The notes beneath the pieces are model-generated. The model searched no databases and was not told where the DNA came from. It was given only the letters and a program-made list of their open reading frames with translations. From NCBI GenBank assembly GCA_973895155.1, contig OZ316893.1:3206490-3270489 (forward strand): a stretch of 64,000 nt of DNA, in the 5' to 3' direction. Positions 1 through 64,000 of the stretch are shown piece by piece (the first letter of the stretch is position 1; each line of letters opens with the position of its first letter). A program made the position numbers and the translations under genes. Source of the DNA: Marsupella aquatica. Its lineage: Eukaryota; Plantae; Marchantiophyta.

Positions 1-1308
1 TTTGAACTCGTGACACAAGGATTTTCAGTCCTCTGCTTCACAAAAATACTTTACCCTTTATTGAAAAGGGTAAAGTTTTTTTCTTATTGCATTTTAATAA
101 GGATCACTTATTTGTATTGAAAAACCCTTTAGTATTATAAAGATGATCCTAATCCAAAATATCATCCATAGAAAAACATACCTACCAAACCAATCACGAT
201 GATACCAGGTTACAATATGGAAGGAGACATGCATAGCACTTGACCAGAGGGATAGCGCTTTACGATTAAAAGGGGGCAGCTCTACTCGTCAAGAAGAGAG
301 CTGCACCCTTTTAATTTGCTTTTGTTTGGTTCGTGTGCCAGCTTTAAAGAGACTTAATCCGAGATCATAGGCGTAAGTTCAAACGTTATTTTTTCTCCTC
401 CCCGAGATTATTATTGATTAAGAATGTTCACGATGCTGCAATCGTTTTCAATTGTTAAGTACACTATTTCTACAAAAAAAATCTGTTTATCCTAAAAAGA
501 TCATCATGGTGAAATGACCTTAAGCTCTTTCCTTTTTCTCTTGGTAAATTATTCCATCATAAAATAGTTAAATACTCCTTTTTCTTGACCTTTTAAGCTA
601 GAGTCTTTAAATCATAGATAAGATGATTTGTTATAACACGTGATAAGATTTTCTCCCATTTGCTTGGTGGTTTCGGGTTTTTAGCATATGGTGTAAAACC
701 GTTTCTGAAAGAAAATATTATTCCATCATAAGGAGATTATAGCTTATTCAATATTGGTCCCCTGGACATTGTGCAGCCTCCTCAGGTTCTTTCTCCATAT
801 TTTGGAGAACGGGTTGTATAGTAGGCACGGACTGAAATCTACGCTTGTATAAGGCTCCATAATTTATTATTATTTTTCTTATTCATTGATACTTAGCGAG
901 TAAAGTATAAAGTCTTCCATACAAAATAAAAATACACCTTAAAACAAAATTGTGACGCCGCCGGTACGGCGGTTAATGAGTGATTCAGTCTAACTGCGCT
1001 CGGCACGCGCGTTAGGTGGGTCTTAGGCCGCTATTATTAGCATAACGACAGTATTTAGGTAATCATTAGGGGTAGGACATCATTAGGCAATAAGGGGGAC
1101 TTCAGGTTCGGGCTGGCGGCGGGTCGCTATTCGCACACCCGGATTACGAGCGTGGAGGGGCCCCTCCCTCGGGTCCGTATAACGAACTTAAGGAAGCGGC
1201 CACTGACGCACGCTGACTCAGACCGGCGGAGTGGCCGGTACACCACAAGCGTGAGCGGTTCAACCTATGGGCGTCGAGGAGACGTCGGGGATCGACAAGC
1301 CCTCAAAG

Positions 1309-1315
1309 TATAAAA
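1309..1315 (+). promoter_or_regulatory. Putative LTR TATA box (TATAAAA); second copy at 10011-10017
   Basis: TATAAAAGGGG about 360 bp into each LTR and about 105 bp upstream of the ATG of the LTR-borne ORF. Confidence 0.6.
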
Positions 1316-1416
1316 GGGGAGCCAACCCTTTGTAGTGCACCAGTCCATCAGTCCGCGCGCCAGCTTCGACCCCAGCTCTCTCGTTCTCTCTAGGTCGCCA
1401 CTACTATCTCCTCTGA

Positions 1417-2667
1417 ATGTCGCACATGATCCTCTCCAGCTCGGCCATTCGATTCTGGACGCAGTTCCTATCTACCGGAAGGCACTTGGCCGATTCATTG
1501 AAACACGCCAACCCGCGCCGATACGAGATCGAACGCGAATACGAGAGAGCCATCCGCCTAGCAGGACGACACCACTACGTCCTTAACTTTGACTACCCGT
1601 CTCAGAGCGAGCTTTACCGACCAGCTGAGGTATCTGGGTACTTCTTCAACGGAGACAAATATATCGGGTTCTAGGAAGCATTGCTTCGGCTTCCGGACGA
1701 GGTCTTCAAAATCCCGGGTACAATCGACCTGCAGCGACATCACTTCGACCACATCCCTGCCCAGGTTCGGGCTGTCATTAACGGCGAGTCCAGTACCAAC
1801 CGTTCGACAGGGGCATCCGCACTCGCTTCGGAGAACTTCTACCAGCACCTGCAGAGCTTCATGGGAACTCGACCATCAACCAACATGACCAACTCAGCCG
1901 GACCCGTACCCGTACCCGTGCCCATGCAACCCCAGCCTCAACCTCAGCTTCAGCTTCAGCCTCAGCCTCAGCCTCAGCTTCAGGTACGTTTCTGAACGGG
2001 CTTCTGGGAGATTTCTCTCATCAAATTGCCCGGGATACCGGGGAGTTCATGGCCCGGAAGGTAGCCTGTTTCTTCAATCAGGAGTTGGTTGCCGCCGTAA
2101 AGGCAGGTCGGGCCCAGTCGGAGGCCCTTCAAAGGATAGAGCGGTACCGGGTGGAGTCCGTGTACCTAAAGAACGAAGTGGCGGCTCAAGAGGCTGAGCT
2201 TCTGCAACTACGACCCAAGGTTGCAGCCGCCGATGAGTTGTTAGCAAAGGCGTACGCTCTTACCGCCCTAGCCGAACAGGCCAAAGCTGGGAACGAGGCC
2301 GAGATTACACGACTCCGGAACCAGATTGACAGTTTGAAGAAACAAGCTGTCACCTGGCAGAAAGACCTGGAGGAGGCCGAGGAGCGAGCCCAGCGGGACG
2401 CGACGGAGATAGCCACGCTGCAGGCCGAGATGGCGCAGCTCCAAACCGAGGCCGAGAAGCAGGACCAGCTGGCGGGTAAACTGACGAGCGACGCCCAGCA
2501 GCTGGAGGAGGCATGTCAGGAGGCAGCAGAGGAGACGGACGCGGCGAGGCGAGAACGAATCTCTGCTGGACCAGGTCCAGCTCCTCAAAGCGGACAATGA
2601 TAGGCTTCGAAGGCAGCGGGATGGCCGTTCCCATTCGGGCGGCTCTGGCAAGCGTGCCAGGCATTAG
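1417..2667 (+). pseudogene. Internally deleted copy of the LTR-encoded gene in the 5' LTR
   Basis: ORF pieces 1417-1674, 1681-1995 and 2049-2600 match the 3' LTR ORF. TGG->TAG at 1672, the 1.4-kb deletion, and a 2-bp deletion near 2555. Confidence 0.85.
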
Positions 2668-3580
2668 CGGCGGAGTAGGAATAGATTAGGATTAGGATTG
2701 GCTTAGTCAGGCTCTTGGGACAGGCACCTGCCTTAGGTACAGCAGCGCTGCCCTGCTGTCCAGCCTGCGTAGATTAGGATCTTCTAATAAGACACAGCCG
2801 TTTTCCGGCCTGACTGTCAGCTTAGTTAGGACCTTAGTCAGCGAATCTTCGGCGAGAGGACACCCCGTCCCTCGGCTCTTAGTATTTAGTGCACCCCTCG
2901 GTAGAGGCGGGGGGGGGGGGGTTTTAGTTTCAGAGTCGGACATCCGCGGGACATGCGGGGAGTCCCGACCTCTGGGAATGACAGAGTACCAAGGGGAGGG
3001 GGTAGGACTAAGCTCGCCGGGCGAGTGCGGAGCCGGGCTCCGTTGCAGTGTGCACCCTCGGCCTTGAACCTGTGCATTCCAGGGCTGTCGTGTCAACTAA
3101 GTGTACGCATATGTTCCCTTTGTAGTAAAATCCTTTCCCATCATTTTCCTTTGTGTAAATCGAGATTGTATGCATGTGTGCGCATATGTGTGTGGGTTTC
3201 TCGTATATGGGTGGCAGCGCCAGGCCGAACGCACTACCCGAGACGTGCACAGGGTGCAGCCTGCGGGTAAGTGGTTGCAAGCACGGGTTGAGGACCTGTA
3301 TCATCGAATCCGGATCGAAGGCGGATAGCACGAAGGCTTAGAAGCCCTTAAGCCGGGGTCGATCCTGCTATCGACTAAGGTACGTTCCGGCGGCGGAACA
3401 CAAACCATACCTAGGAGGTGTCCGTATTTAGCAGTATGCGCACTTAGCGCTAGTTTACGAGAATAAGGTGCATTACGTGCTTCCCTTCCTGCCCGAACCC
3501 TCAGATTTACGAGGGATGTGCCCGTCTAAGCTGAAGTCTGAGTTAAGGCCGAAGCCTACGACGTGACATAGCCTTTGTTT

Positions 3581-3597
3581 TGGCGCTAGATGGAGGG
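3581..3597 (+). promoter_or_regulatory. Primer-binding site, probably tRNA-Asn
   Basis: TGGCGCTAGATGGAGGG lies 12 nt after the 5' LTR. It has one mismatch to the complement of the plant tRNA-Asn(GUU) 3' end (CCCUCCUUCUAGCGCCA) as I recall it. Confidence 0.7.
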
Positions 3598-3691
3598 GGC
3601 ACTCTACATATCGTAGAGGGGAGACATGTGCGTATTCACCTAGGCAGGATACATCAGGACGTAGTACCAACCATTGCATTTATATGAGTAA

Positions 3692-6600
3692 ATGCATGTC
3701 ACTCGTTCTCAAGCAACTTACTTGAGGAGATTGACCAGCGAACGAGAAAGTGCAACCACAACAAGCTCCGACTCGTCGGGCTCGGAGGACTCGCAATCGT
3801 CCCGACGTATGAACATACCCCCGGGATCTTTGGGGTCCGGTTCGACCGGCCCTGCTGCGGTTCCACCACCACCACCACCACCACCTATGGCAGCCGCTCC
3901 ACCGGTGGCCCGCGCTGCTCAGGCGCCTCCACAAATATCGCAACGATCGCGATTTCATTATCGACCTTTCAAAGGGCGTCATGGGGATGATCCAGATGAA
4001 TGGTTGGATGAGTTTGAAGCCACTGCTAAAGCTAATGGGGAAGACGCCATTAAGCTAACCGTCCTCCCAGGAGTGATGCGGGGAGAAGCTCGTCCATGGT
4101 ACAACTCGTTACCACCCGGGACTACCTGGGCACAATTCCAAGCTGCATTGCTGCAGGAGTTTCGTGCCATTGGATCAGAACAGCGTTCTCTATTAAAGAT
4201 TGGCCAGCTTCGCATGGGAAAAAAAGAGTCCCTACGGAAGTTCATTCAGAAGTTTCAGAAACTTGTGGCCAAGATCCGGCCCAGGCCAGGAGACGCGCTC
4301 CAGCTTACATGGTTCCTTCATGGTTTGCCCACGAATATGCAATTCTGGGTACGCCAGAATAATCCAATTTCAATGCAGGCGGCCATAGCGTGCGCTGAAA
4401 CTTACCGGGAGTCCACCCATAACTCCCGGCGGAGCCAGCGAGCACGCCGCAGGAAGGGTAAGTACGAAACCTTCAGTGACAGTGACTCCAAATTGGACGA
4501 CGAGAGGAAGAAGAAACGCAAGAAGAAGAAGAAACATCGTTCGACCTCGTCCAGCTCCGAGACAGAATCCAGTTTGGATTCAGCTTCAAGCATCGGATCC
4601 TCTACCTCCAGTTCATCAGGAAGTGACTTGGAGAGCGAAAGCCGGAGCAAAAAGAAGAAGAGACGAGTGAAGAAGGAGGGGAAGATTAAACCCCGGGCGG
4701 GAAGAACGATACCAGATCCAAAGGCTGCCGAAGCAGACAAGCTGAACGAAATCACGGATCGACTCAAAGCACTGTCAGTACATCTTGCGGAAAAGCCGGT
4801 GGAGAAGAAGAAGCCATCTGAGATTCGAGCCCATGCGTGGTGTTCAAAGTGCTTCCAATCCGGTCATGTGGTGCAGGAATGCCCAAGGTGGAAGAACCGA
4901 GTTCACCAAGTAGAGCTGGATGATGTTGACAACCCGAGCCCCGAATCGGAGTCCACGGAGTATTTCTTTGAGGACCCTCCTGATTCCGTGTACCAGATTT
5001 CAACGGTAGGTCCGCGTAATTTAGCGGGTAGAACTGCGTACCCCTACCCAAGTAATGGCCGGAGTTTCCAGGTTATCAGTAACCCGAGCATCCCTCCTAA
5101 GCCAGGGATTTGGCGGTCCCCGGTTTGTTACAACTGTGAAAAGCCAGGACACTTTGCGAGGGAATGCACCGAACCAAGACGTCAGGGAGATGGCCGAGGC
5201 ACCCCACTATGTCAAGTTTGCAAAACGGAGGCTCATTCCACGGCCAACTGTCCGTTGGTAATCGCTGCTCGAACGAGTGCGGCTAGACCGGCCCAGGCTG
5301 GACCAGTCACGAGCGATGCAGTCGTCCAAATGATTGCTGTAGAATGGCAAGATGACAACACCGAGTGGGTGAATCTGGTGGACGTGGCGGAACACCCTAA
5401 TCCATTGGATGAGGCCGAGTGCTACCGAGTGTCGACAAGGGCCGAACGGAAGGAAGAAAAGACGGAGGAGAAACGGAGGAAAAAGCAAGATACTACTCCG
5501 GTGCAGCCAGCGATAAATATACCCCCGGAAAAGGACGATGACTACCGACGGGACGACCCGAAGCTGTTTTTTCCCTGCATCGAAGAATTGGTAAAGAAAC
5601 AGCTGGAGGCTTACAAAGCTCGGGAATACCAGAAGGCAATCGATAAGGACATCAAAGCAGCCGAGACAGCCCGGCGTCAGGAGCAAGAAAAGCAAGATAA
5701 ACAAGAGGAAGCCAAGCAGCAGCCAACCAAAGAAACAAAGGAGGACTATGATATTAAGGAGGACGTGAAGAGTTGCCCGGTTACAGCGACGGTGGGGCAA
5801 CTGCTGCAGAACAACCCACAGTACAGACGACAACTGAGGGAGTTGCTCATCGGTCGCCGAAGGAGGAGACTACCCCGAGTTGGGAGTGCGGACTGCAACA
5901 TGATATGCGAGGACCTTGGAGCGCCGGACATCTCGATCGAAATTAATAACTGTACCATCAAGATGGTTCTTGTAGACGGAGGAGCGGGAGTCAACATCAT
6001 GACTGAAGAAACGTCAGTCAAGTTAGGATACCTCACGTATCAACCCACGGCCCGAGCTATCAGATTAGCAAACGGGGCAAGGGTCCTCCCATTAGGTACG
6101 CTCACACGAGTGCTCACTCTGGTGGGAGGGGTAGAGTTCTATCTCAACTTCTTAGTCATGAGGCCGGTTCGTCCCTCCTCTTATCCGGTTCTTCTGGGCA
6201 GGCCGTGGTTGTACGGTGGCCGCGTAGTCACGGATTGGGGAAAGAAGGAGCTACGGTTCGGGGAACCCACCGTACGGGTATCCTGGGCAATGAACGATTA
6301 TCAAGGAGAAACCCCACAAGGACCCGAGGAATATGATTCGGAGACCTCGGAGGAAGAGGAACTCAATATGATCAAACTCATCTCGTCCCTATCCGAGGAA
6401 GATGTCTTCGGAGTTGAAGCAACCCGAGAAACACATCTCCTAAATTACCCGAGGGCTGCCATTAAGTCCACCCCAAGCACATCTACTGTCGGGGATGAGG
6501 AAACGCACGAACAACTCGTTGAGACGGAGGACACGGCTCCAGCTAAGCAGGGAGCCGAGGCTGCTCCTTCCATTTCAGAGCCTCATAACCATGAACCAGC

Positions 6601-9600
6601 CCAACAACCGCCTGAGGCCGAAAACTTGAGACCGAGACATAAAAAGCGAGTCTCATGGGATCCGTCCATTCCGCAATTGGAGGACGTAAACCCCATCCCG
6701 AGACCAATCCCGGTCCCACCCATGTACGAAGGGGTTCGGTTAGCTGAGCTTGACGCGAGCCTGGACCCGAGTCTGCGAAACCAGGTTGAAGTCATCAGGA
6801 AGGAACACTACCGGAAGTACACTATTGGGATGGACAAATCTTTTAACCTGGGCCACGCTCTGACGGGGAAGGCTGAAAAATCCATCCAAGCTTTGCTCAA
6901 GGAATATGAAGATGTGTTTGCATGGAGTCATCATGATTTAACAGGCGTCTCCCCCGAGTTGGGAGAACACACAATCGATCTGAACCTAGGAGCCCATGCG
7001 GTACGACAGCGACAACGTCGCATGAATCCGAGGTACTCCATCTTAGTGAAGGAGGAAATTGATCGTCTCCTCGCCGCCGATATCATTTACCCGGTAATGG
7101 CCAGCGACTGGGTCTCTCCCATTGTCATTGTACCAAAGAAGGGAGGTACGGATGGAAAACCTAAGATTCGTATCTGTCAGGACTACCGTAAGCTGAATGA
7201 CGCAACCCGAAAAGACCATTACCCATTACCATTCACGGATATGGTTCTAGATATGGTGGCCCGAAATGAAATCTATACATTTCTTGACGGGTATTCAGGT
7301 TATAACCAAATCTGGATTCGTCTCGCGGATCAGCTCAAAACAACTTTCACTACGGAGTGGGGGACGTTCGCATTTCGGAGGATGCCTTTTGGTCTGTGTA
7401 ACGCCCCGGCTATGTTTCAGCGCCTTATGATGAATATCTTCCACGATTTCCTACGGGAATTTTTGGAGATATTTATCGATGACTTTGCCATCTTCGGAAC
7501 CATTGCCATGCACCCCGAACACCTACGACGAACGTTGCAACGATGCCGAGATGTTAACCTCAAACTACATCCCGCCAAATGCTTCTTTGGGGTAGAGGAG
7601 GGGGTGTTACTCGAGCATCGTGTGTCCAAACGGGGCATTGAGGTGGACCAAGAGAAAGTTGTGGCCTGGATGGCGGTGGTGTTCCCCTTGGATCAAAAAG
7701 CAGTACGATCCTTCTTGGGCTGCGTAGGGTATTACCGCCGGTTCATTAAAGACTTTGCTAAAATTGCGTTGCCCTTAACTGAGATGATGAAGAAGGACGC
7801 AGTTGTCGAGGAGACACCCCGTAGACGGATTGCTTTTGAGGAACTCCGTAAACGACTCACCACCACGCCTATCATGGTCACCCCAGACTGGAATAAGGAG
7901 TTCCACGTGTATGTCGATGTGTCAGGGTTCTGTATCAGATCCGTACTTAGTCAGCTAGATGAGGATGGACGTGATCACCCCATCTATTTTGCTAGCCGTC
8001 AACTATTTGCAGCCGAAAAGAATTATTCCCCCACTGATCAAGAAGCTTTGGGAATAATCTACTCGTGTAAAAAGTTCCGACACTATCTGCTAGGCTACAA
8101 AATCATTTTCCACACGGATCATGATAGCCTGAAGTACATGGTCAACAAAGCGGATGTGACAGGACGGATAGCCCGGTGGGTGCTACTTCTCCAGGAATTT
8201 AATTATGAAGTTCGGGTTCGGCCAGGAAGGGTACACCTCAATGCCGATTTCTTTTCACGACTGGACGGCGTACCAGTCGATCAGCCAATTGATGATATTT
8301 TTCCGGATGAGGAGTTGTTCCACGTGGGGGAAGGGACACCAACGTGGTACGGCTCAATAATCACCTTCCTTTTAACGGGCCGCATCCCTGACGGCATCAA
8401 TCAGGAGGCCGCCGCTGTGTTTTTACGGAAGGCCGGGCCTTACGTCATGATACAGGGTCACCTACATAAGGAAGGTATTAACGGAAAGTTACGACGCTGC
8501 TTAGAGTATAAGGAGACACTTATCGTGATACGGGCCCTGCATGAAGAAGAAGCTGGAGGCCATTTCGCGGCAGTTACGACAGCCTGAAAGATTCTGGACT
8601 CGGGGTATTGGTGGCCTACGTTGCATCGGGATGTACAGCGCTTCATTAAGGGCTGTGACTTGTGTCAGCGAGCGGGGGCCCCGAGGCGGGCTCATCATCA
8701 CCCGCTCACATCTGTGCTTCCATTGGCACCATTCGAAAAATGGGGAATTGATTATATCAGACCATTCACTCCCGTTACCCAAAGGCGAAGGTGCAGGTAC
8801 ATCCTATTAGCTATTGATTACTCCACCAAATGGGTCAAAGCGCGGGCTACGGTAAAGGACGACGCCGCAACCAGTGCCAGATTCTTATACGAACAGATTT
8901 TCACCCGATTCGGACTGCCCTTAGAATTGGTAAGCGACTATGGAACCCACTTCCTCAATGACACCGTAGCCCAGCTTACGGAGCGTTACCTAGTCAAGCA
9001 CCGCAAGACTACCCCATATCATCCTAAAGCCAACGGGATGGCGGAGAGAGCAAATGGTATCATTGGGAAGATCCTCAACAAAACTGTAGCTATGCACAAA
9101 ACGGATTGGGATGATAAGTTGTACGCGGCGGTGTACTCGTATAATCTAGCTTACAAAACTACTACGAGTCACAGCCCGTACTTTCTGGTGTTCGGCCAAC
9201 ATTCGTTGGTGCCCGTCGAATTTGAAGTGCACACTCCACGGGTCAGCATTCGGGATCGCTTACCTGAATCTGAAAGTCTGTCAGACCGAGCTTATCAGAT
9301 TGAAGCCTTGGAAGAAGCACGGCTACTGGCAGCTCGACACACCGTGAAGAAACAGGCAACTTCGAAGAAGCAGCACGACAAAGGACTACGGAGGGTCGAC
9401 GTCGTGGCAGGCGATCTAGTCCTTCTGTACGATAGTAGGTACATGCAGTTTCCAGGGAAGCTGCATACCCGGTGGTTGGGGCCCTTCCTTGTCAATCAGA
9501 TCTACCGAAACGGATCTTTGGAGCTTGCGACGTATGCCGGCGATTTACTCCCCACGCGAATCAGCTACGATCGTGTAAAAAAGTACCACCATCAAGATGA

Positions 9601-9685
9601 CGACGCCGATAGCGATGTTCGCGAGGACGCTTCACAATTAAGCAGGGAGCTATGTGACACCGCCGGTACGGCGGTTAATGAGTGA
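3692..9685 (+). pseudogene. gag-pol polyprotein (Gag, 3 CCHC knuckles, protease, RT, RNase H, integrase) with one in-frame stop at 8585-8587
   Basis: Motifs DPDEWLDEFE (capsid); CSKCFQSGHVVQEC, CYNCEKPGHFAREC and CQVCKTEAHSTANC; LVDGGAGVN (protease); RMPFGLCNAP and FIDD (RT); FEKWGIDY and TTPYHPKANG (integrase); WLGPF. ORF 8621-9685 is in frame with 3692-8587. Confidence 0.95.
9640..9652 (+). promoter_or_regulatory. Polypurine tract
   Basis: AAGCAGGGAGCTA immediately before the 3' LTR TG at 9653. Confidence 0.6.
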
Positions 9686-12600
9686 TTCAGTCTAACTGCG
9701 CTCGGCACGCGCGTTAGGTGGGTCTTAGGCCGCTATTATTAGCATAACGACAGTATTTAGGTAATCATTAGGGGTAGGACATCATTAGGCAATAAGGGGG
9801 ACTTCAGGTTCGGGCTGGCGGCGGGTCGCTATTCGCACACCCGGATTACGAGCGTGGAGGGGCCCCTCCCTCGGGTCCGTATAACGAACTTAAGGAAGCG
9901 GCCACTGACGCACGCTGACTCAGACCGGCGGAGTGGCCGGTACACCACAAGCGTGAGCGGTTCAACCTATGGGCGTCGAGGAGACGTCGGGGATCGACAA
10001 GCCCTCAAAGTATAAAAGGGGAGCCAACCCTTTGTAGTGCACCAGTCCATCAGTCCGCGCGCCAGCTTCGACCCCAGCTCTCTCGTTCTCTCTAGGTCGC
10101 CACTACTATCTCCTCTGAATGTCGCACACGATCCTCTCCAGCTCGGCCATTCGATTCTGGACGTAGTTCCTATCTACCGGAAGGCACTTGGCCGATTCAT
10201 TGAAACACGCCAACCCGCACCGATACGAGATCGAACGCGAATACGAGAGAGCTATCCGCCTAGCAGGACGACACCACTACGTCCTTAACTTTGACTACCC
10301 GTCTCAGAGCGAGCTTTACCGACCAGCTGAGGTATCTGGGTACTTCTTCAACGGAGACAAATATATCGGGTTCTGGGAAGCATTGCTTCGGCTTCCGGAC
10401 GAGGTCTTCAAAATCCCGGGTACAATCGACCTGCAGCGACATCACTTCGACCACATCCCTGCCCAGGTTCGGGCTATCATTAACGGCGAGTCCAGTACCA
10501 ACCGTTCGACAGGGGCGTCCGCACTCGCTTCGGAGAACTTCTACCAGCACCTGCAGAGCTTCATGGGAACTCGACCATCAACCAACATGACCAACTTAGT
10601 CGGACCCGTACCCGTACCCGTGCCCATGCAACCCCAGCCTCAACCTCAGCTTCAGCTTCAGCCTCAGCCTCAGCCGCAGCCTAGCCAAACCCCACCACCT
10701 ATCACCCAGCCAGCACAGGTACGCTCCGTCATCAACGTTGTGGATCTTAGCGATGACGACAAGGCTACCCCACCCTTGACCAGGCGGCCCAGAGGAACAA
10801 GCGCTCGGGGGGCCGACACTATATCGTCCCCACCCCCTGCTCTGACCCCAGGAGCGGCCCCAGCAGACAACATAGTGACCGTGGCCGCCCCGGGCCTGTT
10901 ACCAACCGCAGTGGCACTCCCCAGGCCCGATCGGGAGGATGGGGAAGTATCACCTTCCCCGAGTCAGTCACGGGGAAAGAAGAGGAAGGAATCCGCCACT
11001 GCATCCGGGTTAGCGTTGGCCACGGTAGCCGTAGCCAAGGTGACGATGCATCGCATGGGGGAAAACGTTCATAGCAACATCCTCCATCCCAAGCATGCGG
11101 TGTACCTGAAGACTCAGGGATTTGAGCACCTCACCTCTCTCCCCTGGAACACTTGCAGGTACTACGGGGAGGACATGACAGAATTCGTCAAGAATTATGA
11201 CGACGTACGTCAACAGACTCGGCTGTGGGGAAGGAATATGTCCCTCACAGAAGAACGGCTCAAGATGATCTTCGGGTTACCCGAAGGTGACCATCGAGTC
11301 GAATCACGGGCTCCCGGGGGCAAGGGGGCCAAGTACCAATCTTCAAGTTTTCCCTCAGAGGGATCAGTAGACAACGGGTTCGTGATGAGGACCTGCCTCA
11401 TGCCCGAGATAGCTGAGCGGCTGGAGTTCCAGAGGTACGCTCTCCACATGATGGAACCCCGGGGGGAGATCTCCACCGCCCAGGTTATCCAGGTCGAGAA
11501 CTATCGACCTAGGAAATGGGCATCGTACTTCGCTAAGAAATTCCATGAAGAGATGGAGCGGCGAAGGAAGACGTTGTACATTGGCGGGAAGGCGTATTTC
11601 GCTAGCCACATCGAAATCATTCTTGAGTGGTACGCCCGGTTTGATCGACGAACCCTTCCCCGCATCAACGTTACAAAGCTGGTCCCAACTAGGTGGGTTT
11701 TTCCGGCATTGGAGAGACGGCCCCAACCCGAGGCCCGAAGTCCAGTGGACACGCCAGCTTCACCCACCCCACCTCCACAATTAGCTGTAATCGTAACCGA
11801 GGAGGCGCCGGAGGGGTCGGTCATCGCAACCGTTGATGCGACCCAACTAGTCGGGCTAAGTACAGAAGTTGGTACGGCAGAGGTCTTACCCGAACCCGGG
11901 TCTCCCAAGGACCCGCCGGTGGCAATTCCGGAGAACCGGACATCGCTGTAGGAGGACACTCCAGCCCCTTCCAACGTTATGTCCCCAGGGCTGGACGTCA
12001 CTGCCCCGGCCCCTGCGCGTGTTGATGTCTGCCCGTGCCCAAATCCGGATAGGCACAACTTGGACCACCCGGAACTCTTCGTACAGGGTACGTTTCTGAA
12101 CGGGCTTCTGGGAGATTTCTCTCATCAAATTGCCCGGGATACCGGGGAGTTCATGGCCCGGAAGGTAGCCTGTTTCTTCAATCAGGAGTTGGTTGCCGCC
12201 GTAAAGGCAGGTCGGGCCCAGTCGGAGGCCCTTCAAAGGATAGAGCGGTACCGGGTGGAGTCCGTGTACCTAAAGAACGAAGTGGCGGCTCAAGAGGCTG
12301 AGCTTCTGCAACTACGACCCAAGGTTGCAGCCGCCGATGAGTTGTTAGCAAAGGCGTACGCTCTTACAGCCCTAGCCGAACAGGCCAAAGCTGGGAACGA
12401 GGCCGAGATTACACGACTCCGGAACCAGATTGACAGTTTGAAGAAACAAGTTGTCACCTGGCAGAAAGACCTGGAGGAGGCCGAGGAGCGAGCCCAGCGG
12501 GACGCGACGGAGATAGCCACGCTGCAGGCCGAGATGGCGCGGCTCCAAACCGAGGCCGAGAAGCAGGACCAGCTGGCGGGTAAACTGACGAGCGACGCCC

Positions 12601-13670
12601 ATCAGCTGGAGGAGGCATGTCAGGAGGCAGCAGAGGAGACGGACGTGGCAAGGCGAGAGAACGAATCTCTGCTGGACCAGGTCCAGCTCCTCAAAGCGGA
12701 CAATGATAGGCTTCGAAGGCAGCGGGATGGCCGTTCCCATTCGGGCGGCTCTGGCAAGCGTGCCAGGCATTAGCGGCGGAGTAGGAATAGATTAGGATTA
12801 GGATTGGCTTAGTCAGGCTCTTGGGACAGGCACCTGCCTTAGGTACAGCAGCGCTGCCCTGCTGTCCAGCCTGCGTAGATTAGGATCTTCTAATAAGACA
12901 CAGCCGTTTTCCGGCCTGACTGTCAGCTTAGTTAGGACCTTAGTCAGCAAATCTTTGGCGAGAGGACACCCCGTCCCTCGGCTCTTAGTATTTAGTGCAC
13001 CCCTCGGTAGAGGCGGGGGGGGGTTTTAGTTTCAGAGTCGGACATCCGCGGGACATGCGGGGAGTCCCGACCTCTGGGAATGACAGAGTACCAAGGGGAG
13101 GGGGTAGGACTAAGCTCGCCGGGCGAGTGCGGAGCCGGGCTCCGTTGTAGTGTGCACCCTCGGCCTTGAACCTGTGCATTCCAGGGCTGTCGTGTCAACT
13201 AAGTGTACGCATATGTTCCCTTTGTAGTAAAATCCTTTCCCATCATTTTCCTTCGTGTAAATCGAGATTGTATGCATGTGTGCGCATATGTGTGTGGGTT
13301 TCTCGTATATGGGTGGCAGCGCCAGGCCGAACGCACTACCCGAGATGTGCACAAGGTGCAGCCTGCGGGTAAGTGGTTGCAAGCACGGGTTGAGGACCTG
13401 TATCATCGAATCCGGATCGAAGGCGGATAGCACGAAGGCTTAGAAGCCCTTAAGCCGGGGTCGATCCTGCTATCGACTAAGGTACGTTCCGGCGGCGGAA
13501 CACAAACCATACCTAGGAGGTGTCCGTATTTAGCAGTATGCGCACTTAGCGCTAGTTTACGAGAATAAGGTGCATTACGTGCTTCCCTTCCTGCCCGAAC
13601 CCTCAGATTTACGAGGGATGTGCCCGTCTAAGCTGAAGTCTGAGTTAAGGCCGAAGCCTACGATGTGACA
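9653..13670 (+). repeat. 3' LTR of family A (4018 bp)
   Basis: TG...CA termini, preceded by the PPT and followed by the TSD; repeat of 951-3568. Confidence 0.95.
10119..12773 (+). pseudogene. LTR-encoded ~880-aa protein: Q/P-rich linker, plant-transposon/PMD-like core, C-terminal coiled coil; two in-frame TAG stops in this copy
   Basis: ATG 10119 (equivalent to 1417 in the other LTR), ORF 10188-11951 and ORF 11979-12773 are all in one frame. The first TAG reads CAG in the 5' LTR. Core GFEHLTSLPW...EFVKNYD...TRLWGRNMSLTEERLKMIFGLPEG; the C-terminus is E/Q/A heptad-rich. Confidence 0.8.
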
Positions 13671-13974
13671 AAAATAGCTAGGGGTATACCAACTAAAACC
13701 CTTTACTGTTTTTGTCTGGACATGTTGCTCCACCAGTTTGCGTTCTAAGCACCTTTTATGGGCTTCACAATTAAACCACCACTCGGGGTATAAAGGCCCC
13801 TGCCCGCGCGTACGGGCCACTATGCCCAGGTCAGGCAGAGTGTCGGGTGCCCTGGCATCACCCGGAGCTCACAGGGCCCAGCAGCGCTCCCCCCTCCCCG
13901 TAGCCCCCCTCCCAGCCCTAGCACTTGGGCAACAGCGGCCGCTGCTGCAAGGAGCCAAGACTGGCTGGCTGCCA

Positions 13975-22311: not shown

Positions 22312-25300
22312 TCAGCCTTCTTGACTATCAGTTGCCTGAGCAGAGTTAGCCTTCTGAGGAAGGTACAGCTTGTAATTGTACTGGTAGAAGTACGCTGCGA
22401 CTAGGAAGACTAGACAGTTTACTCCACAAATGATGGCCAGAACCCAGTAGTAACTTTCGAGACCACCGTCGTTGAAGCGCTCGATCAACCAACGTCCGCC
22501 TTTCTGATGCTTGGTCACACTGTTGGTGACATTCACCACCACAGAGCTGAAGTAGTAGCCCAACGATAAGGCTGCGAACGAAAAAGAAATCCCGATGCTG
22601 CGAGTGTTGTCCGACACCTCATGGTAGAAGAACTCGTAACTCGCCAACAGGGTCCCAAACTCCGCCATGGAAGTGAAGAAGAACTGCAGAAGGAGCCAAT
22701 ACATCTTCATCGGGAGCTGGAAGAAGGGGGAGTGCGTGTATCCCAGATCGCGAACGTATCCCAGCCGCTTTCGCTCGACCAGTGCGGCGACGACCATGGC
22801 CAAGGACGCTGAAATCAGCCCCAGTCCAATACGCATCAAAGGGGTAATGCCGAACGGATTCTTCGTCACCTTCCTCAAAATTGGGCGGATGATAAAGTCG
22901 AAGAGAAGTACAATAATAATGGACATCAAAATTCCAGCCGCAGCTAGAGATTGCGGGGGAAGAACGAAGTGTTTGGTCAGAGACCGGTTGAGAGTTTGGC
23001 CCTGCTGTGCCGTGAAGGTATTTGCCTGGGAGTACACAAGGGAAACATACCACGTGCACATCCAGACCGGCACGATAAAGAGAATTCTCTTCGTTTCTTC
23101 GACCTGCGTCACACCAGCTAGCCTCCACCGATTTCCTGTGCCTCCTTCATTCTCTATGATGGCCGCCCTGTCCAGAAACCTGCATTGGTTGGGGTTGAAT
23201 CCAACGAACTCATGAGTGGCCGTTTGAATTGTCTTTGGAATATATCGGTGCGTTAATGTGCGCACCTTTGTACTTTTAGATTCGTTCTACAACCCCACTG
23301 TGGCTTCTACATACCTTCAAATCGATTTGCTTCATTTGATCATTTGCTGCAGATCTCTACATTAGTTGCTTGGACACAGTACAATCCCTGAACAGACTTC
23401 GGCTTAGATTAATCAAGTGATATTTACATTTCCCCAACCTCAATTCAAAGGACGAATCAAGACGAGAATTGCGTATTACCTTAGCTTTCTTGATCGTTCC
23501 AGCCAATCTCCAGAAAGGGGAGCGTCGTAGAGACTGCTGGTGGCTTCCGGAATGGCCAACCTCCTCTTTCGAAAGGCCGCAACTGCTACCTGGACCATAC
23601 GCGTGATGAAGCTTCCCGAGGGTTTCTTGTGTCGATACTTGGGCGTACCGACGAGGAAGATTAAGAACGCCACTACGAACAATATCAGCAGCCAAGCAAA
23701 TCCCCAATCTTTGCTCACGTAACTGAGAATGTAGACGGAGAGGGAGAACGCGGTCAGCAGACCAAGGTTCTGCGCAAAGTAGAACCAAGTGAAGTAATGT
23801 ACGCTTTGCTTCTTCTCTACTGGGTCCGATTCATCAAATTGCTGAGCCCCAAGCGCAGCTAAACCTGCTTTGACGAAGCCAGATCCCAGAGCTATGGTAT
23901 ACAGAGCAACATAAATTGGTGCCATGTATTTCGTTCCTGCCTGTGGGCACGGTGCCGTCGGCGTTGGCGTACAGGCTGGGGGCTGCAGCCCCGAATAATC
24001 GGAGGTGACGATGAGAACCCCCAGTCCCTGGATTGCCAGTTCAAGATTTGAGTCAACAAGTCGTCTCTGAGTACACATTCTCCACGCCACGCATTCCGGG
24101 AGAGTATTTAGCAAATGCTCAATCTCTTAGAAGGTTTGTTCAGCAAAGCACTATGTGCCAAGACTTGAAACTGAGCATGTCAGTTTGAACATGGAACAAA
24201 ACACTACAGGTCTGGACTTTCGAAAAGATAAAATTTCTAGCTCTTTAAGAGTAAATTATGGACAAATGTACTACGATGGAACCTCCAAAATCATATATAC
24301 TTAAATTTGAATCATTATTTCTGCACAAACTTGACGGTAATGAAACGTGAAGTGTGCACTAAGAAGTTTTGCTGGTTTTAATCGTGCATGACACTGAAAG
24401 ACTTGGCTTGTAGAATGCATTCATTAGAGTTGAACTTACAAGTATTTCGATGACTGCGCCAATGAGAGTCGTAACGTAGTACCCTAGATAGCTGTCTGCC
24501 AGGAAGCCCCCTAGCACAGGGACGAGAAAAAAGGTGCCTGCGAAGTCGTTGGCGATCGTTCCAGCATTGGGAAAGCTCTGGTGGAGATACTTGTTAAGGT
24601 AAAACAACAGACCGACTAGGATGGAAATTGAACAGACCGAGTCCGCAGTGGTTAAAGCTGCAGCAAGACCAAAAAGGCCCAAATCAGCCACTGTGCGTCA
24701 TACCACAACACGCTACACTAACTAGAATCCTACTGTAGGTATTGTACATAAAGCTAGAATCGTGAAAGTGCGCTGTTAAGATAGGGGTTGTGATAGGCAA
24801 TGATGATCCTGCATTATTTTGCAGATCGGCAATTGCACGTATTTTCTAACTTTCTGACGTCGGGTCGAAGGTCTGATCAACTCAGGCACATACCATAAAC
24901 ATATATTGCGGCACTCATTCGCCCAGTTCTTGATTTGTCGCTTGGACGGCCCCTCAAAGTCACTGCATCTGAATGTGTGCCGTCTACATATTTTTTGCTA
25001 GTATTTCCAGGATCCTCCACGTCCTGCTGGCCTGGAGGAACAGGAGAAGGTGCGGAATGGATTTGTTGAGACGTCTGCAAGGAAGCATGATTGAAGATTT
25101 CCAACAAAAGAAACATCATTAGAAACATTCTGCTGAAACGGGAAACATATCCGTGAAACGAGTATACTTGAAATTCGATTCCTTGCAGAGAAAATCCAGT
25201 ACTATCATGCATGGTTAAAAAATCCGGAGTGAATCACGGATGCAAATGTTTGCCATGGCACGTAAGCAAGTCTTCAGAATAGTTACGCCGAGGATTACGC

Positions 25301-32540: not shown

Positions 32541-35500
32541 TGTGGTGAGTCCCATGCCTCCCCAAACCCAAGAAACCCCCTTGCTCAAGCCGATTCCTAC
32601 AGGTTTCATCCTTGGCGAGGCTGTTTCCGCGGCTTAGCGGCATGGGACACTGCTAATTCTCCTTCTACTACTTTTATTAACATTTTACACACATATACTG
32701 GACAGATCCTTCATCGGGTCATGAGATACGCAGTCGGCCTAATCTAGGCCTTCTCTTGTCTTTCCCTCCTGTTGGTTAGGTATATTTGGATTCCGCCGCC
32801 GGAATGATCCCCAATTGGTTTGGTTAAGCCGCTAAGACCTCTCTCAGCTCGACACATCCAACTCTCACTCCCTTGCTTACTTCCCTTCTACTTGTTGATG
32901 TGGGCACTCTTCACACAAGTTAATGCGACACACAAATAGCAAAATGACTCCTTCTGACTGAGTTATACCTATGCACTTGCAATACAAACAGTACATCTCA
33001 TACACAAGCTCTACGAACTAAGCCGTGAGGCCAACTCTATTCAGTTCTTAGGTATGAGGAAACATGAATATAGACAAGGGTCACTGTATAACTAACCGAG
33101 AGCTTCTCTTACTACTTGATCCCAGCCCTGCTGGTGCAACTAAAAACTTGCTAAAGAAGAGGCCCTGAACTCCCCGCAGCCCAGGTACTTATCCTGGTTG
33201 TGGATCCGCCTGATTCCTTGCAGCGTAAGCCTAATCTACCTACTGTAATCTACCTAACTGTAATCTACCTATGTACAGCAAGGCAGGAGCACAAGTGTCG
33301 TCCTCACCCGTGGATCCAAAATCCCACTAATCTAAGTGTCAGGGCCGTCTCCTGGTCCTGATCCTAAGTCTAAACTTGGAGATCAGCGCCCGCCCTGCCC
33401 ACTCACGCCTCCTACCTCCACGTCCGCCTTCCCTAAAAGGGACGGCGCCCTTACACCGTCACGACACCGGTGGCTGGTCCTCAATGGACGCCCCCAATGC
33501 TTCCTCCGCAACCACTGCCATTGGTCCGTCTTTTGACAGATTACCTGCCCCTGGCCGAGTCAACTCTTCATCGGCCTGACTGGGTCCACCCTCGGCTTCG
33601 GCCTCAGCATCGGTCACGGCCTCTGCGGCATGTTCTAGTGGAGGATCCGGTACCTCGGCAGCATTACTGGTTCTCCCGGCCTCGGCCTTGCCATCTCCAC
33701 TTCCTAGGACTGGTGGATCCACCGCCGTGCCGATGCCGGAGGTTGGTGCCGGGTTTATCTTCTCGGTCACAACGGCTTGAGAAGCCGTATAATTCCCAGA
33801 CCTAGAAGGTTTCCGCTTCTTCTTCTTCCCTATTTCGACAGCCGGTTCCTTCCCCTTGCCACTTACCTCCGGTACCGGGGTGAGTGTTTCGGCTTGTCCT
33901 TCGGCCAATACTACCCCTGGTAACTGGGTTCCCCCAATTGGAGTTGGACCTGATGAAGCCAAGCATTTAAATACTGCGGCTGGTGTCTTCAGTCGCTCCG
34001 TTTGGTTGTCGGCCCGCCGCTGTAGGTTCTCCATCTTCCTCGTGATTTCCTCCAACTCCTCCTGGGTCTCGTCCAGGTCCTTGCGCGCCTCCTCCAGCTC
34101 CTTATTGGCTTCCTCCAATTCTTTCTTTAAGGTAGCCCTCTCCTCCTGGGTTGCTCTTAGCTCCTTGTCGAGCTCTGCTACGACCACAGACTCCATCTTA
34201 TTCATCTTGGCATAAGTCTGGTCGAGCTAGTCATCCTTTTCACACAGGTCGGCCTTGAAGCTGGCCATTAGGGACGCAAGCTCCTGCTGCAGCGCAATAA
34301 TCCCTTGATAGGATTTCCCTAACTCTGCTTCCTTCTGCTCAAGGGCTCCACGGATATCTTTGAGCTCTCCTTTCAACGCCCTCTCCCTTCTCTGGTTCTC
34401 CGCCATGGCCCGATTGTTGGTTGCTAAGTGGGCCTCCTCTGCATCCCTTAGCTCCCACTTCCATTTCTCTCTTTCCTTGACTGCGCCGGCCAACTCTCCT
34501 TGGGTCCGAGTCAGTTTATCTTTGATAATCTGATTGTCAGACTGAGCGGTATCCAACTGCCCCTGCATGATGTTTTGCTCATGCCGCTTAATCCGCAGCT
34601 CATCTTGGGCTTCTTGGCCACCTGCAGGACTTCCACCTTGGCTTCCTTCTCCCTAAGCCGCCGGATGACCTCGTCCTTGTTGCTTCTCTCCAAAGCCACC
34701 GCTTCTTCTAATCGGTGCTTTTCCAACATCTCCCTCTGGAAAAAGGGTCCCTGCTCCAACTCCTCCCCAAAGATGCTGAGCGCCAGGTCCCCACACATCT
34801 CCTCGTACTCCATGGCTCTATCCTTAGCATAGGTGGAGTAACTAGAAGTCATCGGCATCAACCACCGCGGCCTCTGCTCCCAAGCCGCCTTGCGGATTTC
34901 TTCTATGGTGGCAAAAGGGTTGCTTCTTTTTTCGGCAAGCCGCCTGATGTCCTCTGGCCAATCTCCTCCTGGTAAATCTTTCTCCCTAGCCAGGGCTGCT
35001 TTCTCTTCCTCCCTAAGTCACTCCTGAAATTCTTGTGCCATCTACTTTATGCCGTCAAAGCTTGGGGGAGCAACCTCTGGTGGGGGAGACTCGGGGCTAC
35101 TCTGCTGGGTGGGGTCGCCTCGAACTACTCTTGGAAGCGTGGGGATAAATCGGCCACAGGTCCTTACTCCTGGAACATGATGATCCGACCCATAGCCGGA
35201 GTTATCATTGCTGTAGTCCTCCACCGCCTCCTCCACTACTTGGACTCCCGGCTTCTCCCTTTGTTTCCCTGGTCTTGTCATGAAAATGACCTTATAGATC
35301 ACGGGCTCTGGTTCCTCTAGTTTCCAGGTTGTCGTCTCCCTCTGCTCTCCGCGGGAAGGAGCCTTAGGTTGCTCTGCCTCTGATTCGGGGCTTGAGGCTC
35401 CCATGTACATTCACACTCCCAACTTGTGTTCCGGCCTAAATCTCTCCTTGGTTCCGGTAAAGGGGTCTTCCCTTCTGAGTCGGCTTAGGCCAACCTCTAG

Positions 35501-37262
35501 GGCAGCGTCCTGTATCGGTGCCGTTGCCGTTGCCGGAACCAGTGTGGGTGCCGTTCTCTTTTCTTTCTCCAGCAATTTCAGCAGATTTTGCATGCCTGGT
35601 TGCTGCATCGGCAAGTCTTCTTTCCTTGTCCGAAACACCTGCTCGATCGTCGGACTGTCGGGCTGGTTGGGCTTCTTTGGTGCCGGCCCCTACTCCGGAA
35701 CCTCCTCCGGTGCCCTTGCCGATAGGGGAAGTACTGGGGCAAAGATTTGACTTCTGGCATACCGGCACAACAGCGGCATGTGATAGCCAAGCCGGGACAC
35801 GCTTTCCACGCCGATCACCTGCTGTTCCTCCTTCAAGATCTTCTTCAGCTGGTTGAGGAGGTACCCATTGTAATCCCGGCTTGGGTCTGGCCTTTCTGCT
35901 AGGTAGACCTGAGCCTTGCCGATCTCTGGCCTCGACAAGTTACAATGCATGGTCACCCGCAAGAAATCGATCATCTCTCCGATGTGTGGGTTGGTGCAGG
36001 TGTTCCGAAAGAAGCCATTCTTTGTTGATGGTCCTGGGAATGACCGAAACTCCTTGTCAGGTAAGGTCTTCTTGGTATCAACCTTGGTCTTATTACCCAT
36101 CGGCAAGCCAAACACCTCAGCAATCACCCGGGGAGTGAGATAGAAATCCTTCCCATACACCCTCGTGGAATTGGTCTTGGGTTCCCATGATCCCACAAAT
36201 TCTAATAAGTCTGAGTCTGGCACCTCCGGCTTCAGCCATGGTAATCTTATGAAGGCTTCCAAGCCGGATCCGGCCATGAAGCCTTGGTACTTCTTGGTCT
36301 GCATGGCCGTAAAGCATGCATCCTCCTCCCGTGCAAAGTGTAATTGCACTTCCTCCGGTAGGGTCGCCGCCCAGCCTTTCCAGGTGTCATCGTTTGTTGG
36401 AATGGCATTGATGGGGTCGACCTCTTCCTCTTCGGCTTCTCCCCTTGTCCTGCTCTGCTGGCTTCCTAGGTGCTGCCGACCTCGTTCTTTTTGCCGGGGT
36501 GGCCTCTTCGTTGTTGTTTCCTTTCCTCTTCATCTCGGCTGCCGTGGATGTTTCTCCTAGCAAGGTTGCCTTCGTCCACCCCTCCGTGTTACCCTTCAAC
36601 TCCCAGTGTAGGTCGTTGCAGCGATTGATGGCTTCCCTGATGCCGACGATTCTATTTTCGCAAAACAGAAGGTCATCGAGCTGATTGGCAGTAGGAGTCC
36701 ACAAGAACTCGGCCTTGATAAGTTCTCCTCCTAAGAAAGTCATCTTTTGTAGTTCCCAGAGCCAAGCAAGCTCCTGCCGTTCTTGAGCTGCTCTCTCCGA
36801 TTCTTCATCCTCGTAAGTCCTGACGTACTCACCTGCTCGTTCGAACAGGCATCCCAAAAAATGTGCTGCTTGATTGACGTTGCTCATACCCTCCTTGAGT
36901 CGATCGTTGGTATCTATTCCCCCCGAGTGCTTGCCTAAGCAGCTGACAGTATTTGGCCTCCCGTAGTCGTCTGCCCAGTTCGTTCTTGCAAATGAGCCAC
37001 TGATCCTTGCGAGCGGGTTTTACCCCTCTCCTCCTCTGGTCTTCCCTCCCGTTGGTCATCCCTAGTCGCCGACGCTTAGCGCGCCCTAACCCTAATCGTG
37101 TTCTCTCCCCCGACGTCTTTACTTCCGGCCTCGGCCCGGGTTCCATAGTCACCCTTAATTGTTTATATTTTCCTTGTTTTTGTTCCTATACTAAGGTGTT
37201 TCCAGGGTACACTCCTGCTTTACTGTGTAAACCGGGCTAGTGATTCCTGGCTAGGCATCACA
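32541..37262 (-). mobile_element. 4722-bp solo LTR (family B) carrying a long gene
   Basis: Minus strand reads TGTGATGCCTAG...CCACA. Flanks are CAGGG and AAGGG (TSD with 1 mismatch); the uninterrupted host motif TCATGAATTCATGAAGGGAGTCTC is preserved at ~32483-32506. No gag/pol inside. Same terminus and ORF as the element starting at 61890. Confidence 0.82.
33459..37146 (-). pseudogene. Family-B LTR-encoded protein (~1200 codons, frameshifted): PMD-like core plus coiled coil
   Basis: ORF pieces 36829-37152, 36387-36887, 35690-36349, 35411-35638, 35042-35410, 34511-34861, 34227-34568 and 33459-34205. Core GLEAFIRLPW...EFVGSWE...TRVYGKDFYLTPRVIAEVFGLPMG. Confidence 0.78.
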
Positions 37263-37358
37263 AAGGGAGTCTCTTCTCTCTTTGCAAGTACACCTCGGAC
37301 ATTCCTGGCTAGGCATCACAAAGGGAGTCTCTTCTCTCTTTGCAAGTACACCTCGGAC
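37243..37358. repeat. Perfect 58-bp tandem duplication spanning the LTR end and its flank
   Basis: ATTCCTGGCTAGGCATCACAAAGGGAGTCTCTTCTCTCTTTGCAAGTACACCTCGGAC occurs twice (37243-37300, 37301-37358). Confidence 0.9.
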
Positions 37359-37882
37359 ATTTAGAAGGGTATTGAAAATGGGGTTCAGAGGGAGGGTGAT
37401 GTGAAGAAATCACCCAGGGTCTAAATAACTACCTAAAATAGGGTCAAAATGAAGCGCGACCACGACAACTCGCGACACGTCGCCGATGAGTGCTGAAAAC
37501 GGCACAAAATTGGATAGCGAGATTGTTTTTCACTCTTTTACAAAGGAAATCCAAATGACATCTAGTGAAAATGAATGGGTTGCCCCGTGTTACTTGGTTA
37601 TACATACTAATCACAGATAAGGCGCGACTTAGTAAAATTAACACCAAATCATGATAAATCAATGTTTTCGGGCCAATTATTCATGAATATTTTGGGGTAA
37701 TAACGAGAAAAAGTTCGTAAATTTCATGAATATCTGATATTTTTGAAGTTAAGAAGTCACAACAACCCGTGAAAAACTATAAATAGGCTTGTTTATTCAT
37801 GACTCTTGGTCATTATTTTGAGGAGATTTGTTAGATTTTACTAATTTTCTAAGTTTCTTGTCAATTTGCACTAGTTTTTCCA

Positions 37883-61889: not shown

Positions 61890-63973
61890 TGTGATGCCTA
61901 GACAGGAATCACTCGGCCAGTTAAGTGGGTAAAGCAGGAAGGCACCCTAGGAACACCTTAGTATAGGGACAAAACAAGGAAAATATAAACCATTAGGGGC
62001 AACCATGGAACCCGGGCCGAGGCCGGAGGTAAGGACACTGAGGGTGAAAACTCGATTAGGGTTAGGGCGCGTTAAGCGTCGGCGGCTAAGAAGGATCAAC
62101 GGGAAGAAGGATCGGCAGAGGAGAGGGGTAAGGAGCGCTTGCAGGAGATGGTGGCTCATTTGCGAGCACAAACTAGGCAGACGACTACGGGAGGCCAACT
62201 ACTGTCAACTGCTTAGGCAAGCACTCGGGGAGAGAGTAGATACCGACGATCGACCTAAGGAGGGTATGAGCAACGTCAATCAAGCGGCACATTTCTGGGG
62301 ATGCCTGTTCGAACGGGCAACTAAGTACATCAAGACTTACGAGGACGAGGAATCAGAAAGGGCAGCTCGCTCGATTGTGGGAGCTGCAGAAGACGGCTTT
62401 CTTAGGAGGCGAACTCATCAAGGACGAGTTCCTGTGGACGCCTACTTCCAATCAACTCGACGATCTTTTGTTTTGCAAAGACAGCGTCGTCGGCATCCGA
62501 GAGGCCATCAAGAACTGCAACGACATACACTGGGAATTAAAGGGTAGCACGGAAAGGTGGACCCAGGCAACGGTGCTAGGAGAAACCTCCACGGCAGCAA
62601 AGATGAAGAGGAAGGGAGCTGTCAACGATGAAGCCACCCCGGCAAAAAGAACGAGGTCGGCGGCACCAAAGAAGCCAGCCGAGCAGCAGAGCAGGAGGCA
62701 GGGAGAAGCCGAAGAGGAGGAGGTCGATCCCATCAAGGCCATTCCAACCAGGGATGACACCTGGAAGGGCTGGGCGGCAACCCTACCGGTGGAGGTGCAA
62801 CTACATTTTGCACGGGAGGAGGATGCATGCTTCACGGCCATGTAGACCAAGAAGTACCAAGGCTTCATGGCCGGATTTGGCTTAGAGGCCTTTGTAAGAT
62901 TACCATGGCTGAAGCCAGAGGTACCGGAGTCAGACCTATTAGAATTCGTGGGGTCATGGGAACCCGAGACCAATTGCACGAGGATATATGGGAAGGATTT
63001 CTATCTTACTCCCAAGGTAATTGCTGAAGTGTTTGGCTTGCCGATAGGCAATAAGACCAAAGTTGATACCAAGAAGACCTTGCCTGACAAGGAGTTCCGG
63101 TCGTTCCCTGGGCCATCAACGAAGAATGGCTTCTTCCGGAACACCTGCACCAACCCGCACATAGGAGAGATGATCGACTTCTTGCGGGTGACCATGCATT
63201 GTAACTTGCCAAGGGCAGAGATTGGCAAGGCACAGGTCTATCTGGCAGAAAGGCCAGACCCAAGCCGGGACTACAACGGGTACCTCCTCAACCAATTGAA
63301 GAAGATCTTAAAGGAGGAGCAGCAGGTAATCGGCATGGGGAGCGTGTCGCGGCTTGGCTATCACATGCCGCTGTTGTGCCGGTATGCCAGAGGTCAGACT
63401 TTTGCCCCGGTACTTCCCCTGCAGGTAAGGGCACCCGAGGAAGCTCCAACGCCGAGGCCGTTGGCTGAGAAGCCTCAACCACCTGTTAGCCCTACGATCG
63501 AGCAGGTGTTTAGGCCCAGGAAGGAGGACTTGCCGATGCAGCAACCAGGCATGTAGAGTCTGCTGAAACTACTGGAGAAAGAAAAGAAATCGGCATCGGC
63601 AACAACAACGGCAACGGCAACAATGCAGGACACTACTACAGAGGTAGGCCTACACCGGCTCACAAGAGAAAACCCCTTTGCTGGAGACAAGGAGAGAATC
63701 AAGCCTGAATCCAAGCCAGGTGTTCGAATGTATGTGGGAATCTCAAGCTCCGAATCTGAGGCAGAATTGCCTGAAGCTCCTACCGACGAAGAGGAGAGGG
63801 AGAAGCCGGACGACCAAGAAGTAGAGGAGGCAGTGGAGGACTGCAGCCATGATAATTCCGGCTATGGGTCGGACCATCACGTCCCAAGAGTAAGGACCTG
63901 TGGCCGGTTTGTCCCCACACTTCCAAGGGTAGTGTGAGGGGACCCCAACCAGCAGAGTAGCCCTGAGTCTCCC
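61890..63973 (+). mobile_element. Second family-B LTR copy (5' part) with ORF from ATG 62005
   Basis: Starts TGTGATGCCTAGACAGGAATCACTCGG. Clearly homologous to 37262->35090 (e.g. GLEAFVRLPWLKPEVP...). Confidence 0.88.
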
Positions 63974-64000
63974 TGTGATGCCTAGACAGGAATCACTCGG
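63974..64000 (+). mobile_element. Start of a third family-B LTR inserted inside the second
   Basis: 27/27 identity to 61890-61916. It interrupts the QQSSPESP(PPEV) coding sequence that is intact in the 32541-37262 copy. Confidence 0.75.

Follow-up and report, generated by a model that had tools for sequence, protein, structure and literature searches.

Several animal retroviruses carry accessory genes in or overlapping the unique 3' region (U3), namely sag of mouse mammary tumour virus (MMTV), nef of human immunodeficiency virus (HIV) and bel of the foamy viruses, and these genes are hence copied into both long terminal repeats (LTRs). For plant retrotransposons, the accessible text of the sources cited here and below treats LTRs as noncoding (PMC6431247) and places extra open reading frames (ORFs) in the internal region (PMC6317226, PMC7264820, PMC4408406; further background in PMC13468544, PMC10508981, PMC7466625 and PMC12885004), and it reports no extra ORFs for moss Tat-like elements (PMC4408406). 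Here we describe a Ty3/gypsy element of the liverwort Marsupella aquatica in which an accessory ORF lies within the LTR. The element is located in a stretch of 64,000 nucleotides (the window; contig OZ316893.1, positions 3,206,490 to 3,270,489 of the forward strand, assembly GCA_973895155.1). An earlier reading of this stretch from its letters alone (the original prediction) had proposed the LTR-borne ORF and had given the internal region as the normal place of extra ORFs, in agreement with those sources. We found no account in the literature of a plant LTR that holds a full gene; the supplements of PMC6317226, Repbase entries and subscription papers could list such ORFs without comment.

As judged from codon substitutions and related loci, the coding LTR is a real, selected and recurrent architecture. 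We lean towards the explanation that a selected accessory gene of 884 codons resides in a 4.0-kb LTR, likely because plus-strand priming moved to a site behind pol, and that it encodes a predicted nuclear regulator expressed from its own TATA promoter.

The LTR-borne reading frame and its element

The element spans positions 951-13670 and is bounded by AAAAT target-site duplications (TSDs) on both flanks (946..950 and 13671..13675; + strand, like all features of this element). Self-comparison gave a full-length 3' LTR of 4,018 bp with TG...CA ends (9653..13670) and a 5' LTR (951..3568) which is only 2,618 bp long because about 1.4 kb is deleted from its interior (junction 1978/1983). A tract resembling a primer-binding site (PBS) and starting with TGG is found 12 nt past the 5' LTR (3581..3598) and is presumably of the tRNA-Asn type. 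A conserved motif (GTTCGCG..GG..TCAC) and polypurine tract (PPT) lie within the end of pol (9617..9652), where the tract directly adjoins the 3' LTR start at 9653. These signals agree with the original prediction, which had set the LTR borders by TSD, PBS and PPT, and together with the TG...CA ends and the domain order protease (PR), reverse transcriptase (RT), RNase H (RH) and integrase (IN) they identify a Ty3/gypsy element.

The single frame predicted to lie wholly within the LTR was observed at 10119..12773, where it runs over 884 codons, of which codons 16 and 611 are stops. Its product consists of an N-terminal domain, a Pro-rich linker with KKRK, a core, another Pro-rich linker, a coiled coil and a basic tail, in that order. 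The conserved core of about 200 residues (11046..11666) belongs to an unnamed family of bryophyte elements and is under purifying selection. The coiled coil of the original prediction was recovered as a predicted C-terminal region (12186..12728) with weak Pfam matches of coiled-coil type, all below cut-off. The ORF is not duplicated at both ends as had been claimed, since the 5' copy (1417..2667) is frameshifted and lacks the equivalent of 10681-12086, that is codons ~188-656 with the whole core. The two copies do carry different stops, from which an intact ancestor had been proposed, that of the 5' copy being at codon 86.

The sole TATA[AT]A of the LTR is the TATAAAA at 10011, located 108 bp upstream of the ORF ATG (earlier given as ~105 bp). 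With TGACG at 9906 and a pyrimidine-rich leader that follows the TATA box, it forms a candidate proximal promoter (9906..10017). The distal non-coding part of the LTR (12774..13670, 897 bp) holds a donor-like GGTAAGT at 13368, the 29-bp motif TTCCGGCGGCGGAA at 13487 and AATAAG at 13564. This 29-bp motif of the distal LTR of family 1, to which the element belongs, recurs in another LTR family of the window (family 2), where the non-coding stretch past the ORF measures 918 bp. We also noticed that TAGTG(TG)CACC occurs shortly downstream of the proximal TATA (10035) and at two positions of the distal LTR (12993 and 13147); this motif could mark start sites.

The two LTR blocks are 98.8-98.9% identical in the window self-comparison. 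Over 2,614 aligned bases we counted 24 substitutions, 22 of them transitions, which gives a Kimura two-parameter (K2P) distance of 0.0093 and an age of ~0.36 Myr if the grass rate of 1.3e-8 is applied (PMC1560396). With both LTRs complete, the full element would measure ~14 kb. A spliced-out intron was considered for the 5' LTR deletion and dropped, as the lost segment has no GT start and the 15 joints listed for the family contigs, out of 47, do not include its junction. Folding of the LTR-end RNA was unremarkable (z -1.4 to +0.6) and Rfam gave no match.

Selection on the ORF and its placement in related elements

Cover of family 1 was assessed on family contigs from four runs, in which summed depth is not copy number. 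These contigs cover every LTR bin, and at each stop position of the 3' ORF 93-100% of the summed depth is another base giving a sense codon. Both stops are thus rare in the family contigs. Of 73 core variants 40 were listed. Twenty-seven of these 40 are synonymous, where 22-31% would be expected (p<=1.5e-6), and 27 fall at third positions, with a dN/dS (omega) of about 0.14-0.21; the list contains no indel. By this pattern the ORF is a real, family-wide and selected component of the LTR. The original prediction had proposed a conservation check across the family, and the selection observed here, together with a dN/dS of 0.08 between the two family-2 copies over 231 core codons (0.14-0.17 in the N-terminal part), answers it in the affirmative. 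Because family cover is continuous and purifying selection is seen in two families, neither the nested insertion nor the dN/dS near 1 that it had named as contrary outcomes was observed.

Family 2 is represented by a unit of 4,722 bp (32541..37262, - strand) that begins and ends in TG...CA and lacks terminal direct repeats; its 5-bp TSD shows one mismatch. It is best read as a putative solo LTR, and it contains a decayed homologous ORF (about 36887 to 33459, - strand). The window therefore holds one solo-LTR-like unit that bears the ORF; the original prediction had each solo LTR remain a self-contained expression cassette. A 61-bp tandem duplication spans the left junction of this unit (37243-37361). 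Another copy with a homologous ORF (61890..64000, + strand) is interrupted at 63974 by the start of a further copy. The family-2 ORFs were recovered by tblastn with E values of 3e-18 and 3e-15. The cores of families 1 and 2 score 179 against 30+/-5 for shuffled sequences, of which 0/2000 score as high, whereas homology of the N-terminal domains was not significant (214/2000 shuffles as high).

Scanning metagenome contigs for pol yielded 44 related loci, and seven of these have a homologous ORF downstream of pol. The series of conserved motif, PPT and TG that opens the LTR, where the border is proven by the TSD in the window, was likewise present in 7/44 loci. Because this series directly follows pol in L001, L002, L003, L006 and L009, with the homologous ORF beginning 0.5-0.8 kb past the LTR start, the ORF is placed within the LTR in these five loci. 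L001 and L002 also have matching inverted LTR ends ahead of a PBS. The circular contig L007, which we read as a collapsed element, has a different layout: its ORF of 745 codons is internal, between a pol-proximal purine tract and the terminal motif and PPT, and its LTR is ~990 bp long. L008 has a 1,083-bp LTR with perfect 7-bp inverted ends and the tail of an ORF upstream of its PPT, and L004 and L005 resemble L007 behind pol, on contigs too short to class. We take the PBS of L001, L002, L007 and L008 to be of the Athila type (tRNA-Asp). A TATA-like box upstream of the ORF was found in 4/5 in-LTR loci versus 0/2 L007-type loci.

By hhalign (91%, E 9e-7) the cores of the window are homologous to those of the metagenome loci. 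A profile of the five metagenome sequences alone reached the family-2 cores at E 1e-4 to 3e-4 and the family-1 core at 0.12. No locus was found when the metagenome contigs were searched with the core alignment, and none when viral contigs were searched with pol. Instead of a coiled coil, the L007-type proteins have a conserved C-terminal domain (W-x-W-V-Y-H-C-R-R ... GPDG) after the core (L007:5950-6450; also P0214, P0222 and P0240); this domain has no Pfam match. Separately, TCCGG/CCGGA was observed at ~4-12x the dinucleotide expectation across the whole of L001, L002, L003, L006 and L009, coding parts included. This excess is absent in L007, L008 and the window, and TCCGG enrichment as a binding-site signal is absent from the window LTR.

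Origin, expression and possible role of the LTR gene

Plus-strand priming defines the left border of an LTR. If priming moved from a tract behind the ORF to a tract behind pol, the ORF would be copied into both LTRs in one round. Such a PPT shift is the likely origin of the present arrangement because the homologous ORF sits after the terminal PPT in five relatives and before it in L007. We consider it fairly probable that the internal 3' placement came first and that both LTRs then received the ORF, together with its promoter, through reverse transcription. The ORF may thereby lie in an expanded U3, with gag-pol and the genomic RNA starting at a second site in the distal ~0.9 kb, an assignment to which we give almost as much credence as doubt. 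It is favoured because the distal parts of 897 and 918 bp are near the short LTR sizes of L007 and L008. The ORF would then use the proximal TATA as its own promoter and gag-pol the second start. The original prediction had the genomic RNA begin with the ORF; comparison with the relatives suggests that a U3 location with a second distal start fits them as well or better.

The core family comprises 844 clusters at E<=0.001 and 446 at 1e-10 (HMMER, 8-sequence query), and the ten members looked up are all unnamed. Neither the 594-aa frame nor a 3-sequence core alignment retrieved any homologue in word-index searches, and a sequence search of the PDB gave no match. PF20167 (Transposase_32) matches 2/53 members at E 0.005 and 0.014, far under the 45-bit cut-off, and Atlas, as one source of leads only, pointed to DUF1985 (0.85-0.89) and PMD clusters (0.84-0.88). 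The core is thus weakly linked, at the level of putative relationship, to PF20167, DUF1985 and PMD. Of the PMD-like core in the original prediction only this clan-level hint stands, since the window cores lack a PF10536 match at E<=10. The AlphaFold check that it had advised was unproductive: two models were unusable (mean pLDDT, the predicted local distance difference test score, 36.4 and 39.1), and Foldseek with the second of these returned nothing at E<=0.001. The protein carries basic clusters. PMD proteins of the host function in silencing, and it was proposed that transposons use them to counter it (PMC5418596), and the extra ORFs of Retand were proposed to be DNA-binding regulators (PMC11963269). 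Tentatively, the protein could be a nuclear transactivator or anti-silencing factor that acts in trans on the element's own DNA or chromatin, and also from solo LTRs.

A number of observations weigh against this account. PF10536 was not matched by any of the 3/3 window cores, 5/5 locus ORFs or 53/53 family members scanned (of 150 listed). The internal type is represented by one complete but collapsed metagenome contig (L007), to which L004 and L005 are assigned by resemblance, and L004 has a TG immediately past its pol-proximal tract. The window LTR has no canonical TATA besides the proximal one, nor did a conserved distal TATA emerge, the distal TATAAA of L001 being absent from the matching stretch of L002. 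The 150-member profile, in which the three window cores rank first (E 4e-6 to 6e-5), is partly circular as its members were retrieved with a query containing the window cores. Support for a single origin of the in-LTR state is limited to 87-91, and the approximately unbiased (AU) test does not reject a tree without it (p=0.20). The tree thus neither shows one origin nor rejects several, and the direction of change between the two placements is accordingly no more than probable.

A close rival of the expanded U3, which follows the original prediction and which we regard as rather doubtful in itself, takes the proximal TATA as the main promoter and places the ORF in a repeat region (R) of ~3.5 kb. 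The ORF would then stand at either end of the genomic RNA, and gag-pol would be translated from a separate distal-start or spliced RNA. Both window families have their only canonical TATA in the proximal position, A-rich signals located 99-153 nt from the LTR end (window, family 2, L001, L007 and L008) would suit a poly(A) site near the end, and in barley BARE an upstream start serves packaged RNA and a downstream start translated RNA (PMC3735527). However, a very long R would be needed, with strong-stop DNA of up to 3.6 kb or an early transfer, and only ~125 bp of U3 would be left in family 2. Moreover, by the logic of reverse transcription a PPT shift alone lengthens U3 and not R.

An improbable alternative treats the ORF as an env-like gene for particle movement or assembly rather than for chromatin, whose RNA would be spliced between a donor site of the distal 5' LTR and an acceptor just ahead of the ATG in the 3' LTR. 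A perfect donor-like site is found at 302 nt from the end of the LTR, and at 340 nt in family 2; at ~10086 a pyrimidine tract terminates in TAG, but this tract could equally be a promoter Y-patch. ATHILA ORF2 mRNA is spliced from full-length RNA (PMC7197481); the present protein, however, has no segment of transmembrane strength (maximum 19-residue hydropathy 1.34), hence no helix as in an env-like membrane protein, and the TATA box before the ORF is conserved among in-LTR loci. That the ORF is a functionless passenger, whether a nested insertion, a fragment captured by a short LTR or an assembly artefact, is very improbable. All four ORF copies in the window are broken, and only 8-9-bp chance repeats surround the ORF, because of which an old capture is not directly readable. 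Against this stand the selection in two families, the continuous family cover in which none of the 15 listed joints skips the ORF cleanly, and the same layout in five independent loci.

Neighbouring features, lineage and known systems

The window also contains a young Ty1/copia element (40680-47138, - strand; 403-bp LTRs 100% identical, TSD GGTTG, one stop between gag and pol), a CACTA transposase fragment (PF02992) and a PTR2/NPF transporter exon at 47735-48655 and 22312-23286 respectively, and a 419-codon open frame (37933-39192, + strand) with no Pfam match at E<=1.

The gag-pol of the family-1 element (3692..9685, + strand) is a single frame encoding Gag, CCHC, PR, RT, RH and IN with one stop at 8585-8587, and its last 33 nt fall inside the 3' LTR. 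In a Pfam scan of pol the only RNase H matches at E<=1 were to RT_RNaseH families, with no archaeal-type RNase H (aRH) or second RH, and the element thus falls outside the aRH-bearing Tat group that includes Ogre and Retand. The closest pol matches, as the best 3 of 120 listed, are three Calypogeia fissa proteins (66-69% identity), and Riccia and Marchantia matches rank lower in that list, among unnamed proteins. In an RT-RH tree of 51 rows, which holds no lineage-labelled reference elements, the window groups with Calypogeia (100/99) in a bryophyte clade apart from the seed-plant matches. Pol thus points to a likely liverwort host. The lineage is on the Athila/Tat side and without aRH. Phygy elements are short and prefer an NCGN target (PMC6317226), unlike this ~14 kb element with its 5-bp TSD AAAAT.

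Annotation and classification pipelines treat LTRs as non-coding, so such genes are missed, and the borders of elements with coding LTRs of 4-5 kb are easily misplaced. Were the gene expressed from solo LTRs, the principal way in which the host removes retrotransposons would spare the accessory gene and multiply it. That one homologous ORF occurs in two placements offers a concrete route for moving genes into LTRs, with a plant parallel to retroviral U3 genes. The large, selected and soluble domain family is also suited to probing the role of plant extra ORFs. More boldly, and in our view unlikely, a widespread undescribed bryophyte Ty3/gypsy lineage might have switched its PPT, so that every LTR, including the solo LTRs that remain after the host has deleted an element by recombination, would encode on its own a trans-acting anti-silencing factor from a new family with 800+ clusters. 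On this bold reading LTR capture could also have turned 3' (Athila-like) extra ORFs into 5' (Ogre-like) ones.

Among described systems, bryophyte non-chromovirus elements without aRH likewise have pol filling the internal region, and no extra ORF is described for them in the accessible sources. Ogre and Tat IV-V are likewise non-chromovirus Ty3/gypsy elements with very long LTRs and a sense accessory ORF consisting of a domain and a coiled coil (PMC4408406, PMC6317226), but their extra ORFs are internal and carry PF10536, and Ogre has aRH, whereas the window ORF is inside the LTR and lacks a PF10536 match, and its element has no aRH. The env-like ORF of Athila (PMC7264820, PMC7197481, PMC1142308) is also in sense, downstream of pol and in elements without aRH, and L007 shows its internal layout. 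In the window, by comparison, the PPT precedes the ORF, and there is no transmembrane segment and no PF03078 match; the internal extra ORF typical of Athila/OTA is seen only in L007, the window ORF lying between the PPT and the LTR end. Rice Retrosat2/RIRE3 likewise combines LTRs of >3 kb with an unexplained extra ORF, but this ORF0 is upstream of gag-pol, was searched separately from the LTR and belongs to another lineage (PMC3485330). The accessory genes of MMTV, HIV and foamy viruses resemble the window ORF in being copied into both LTRs; they differ in belonging to animal retroviruses and in encoding shorter, unrelated proteins, and it is in U3, which they occupy or overlap, that the window ORF may also lie.
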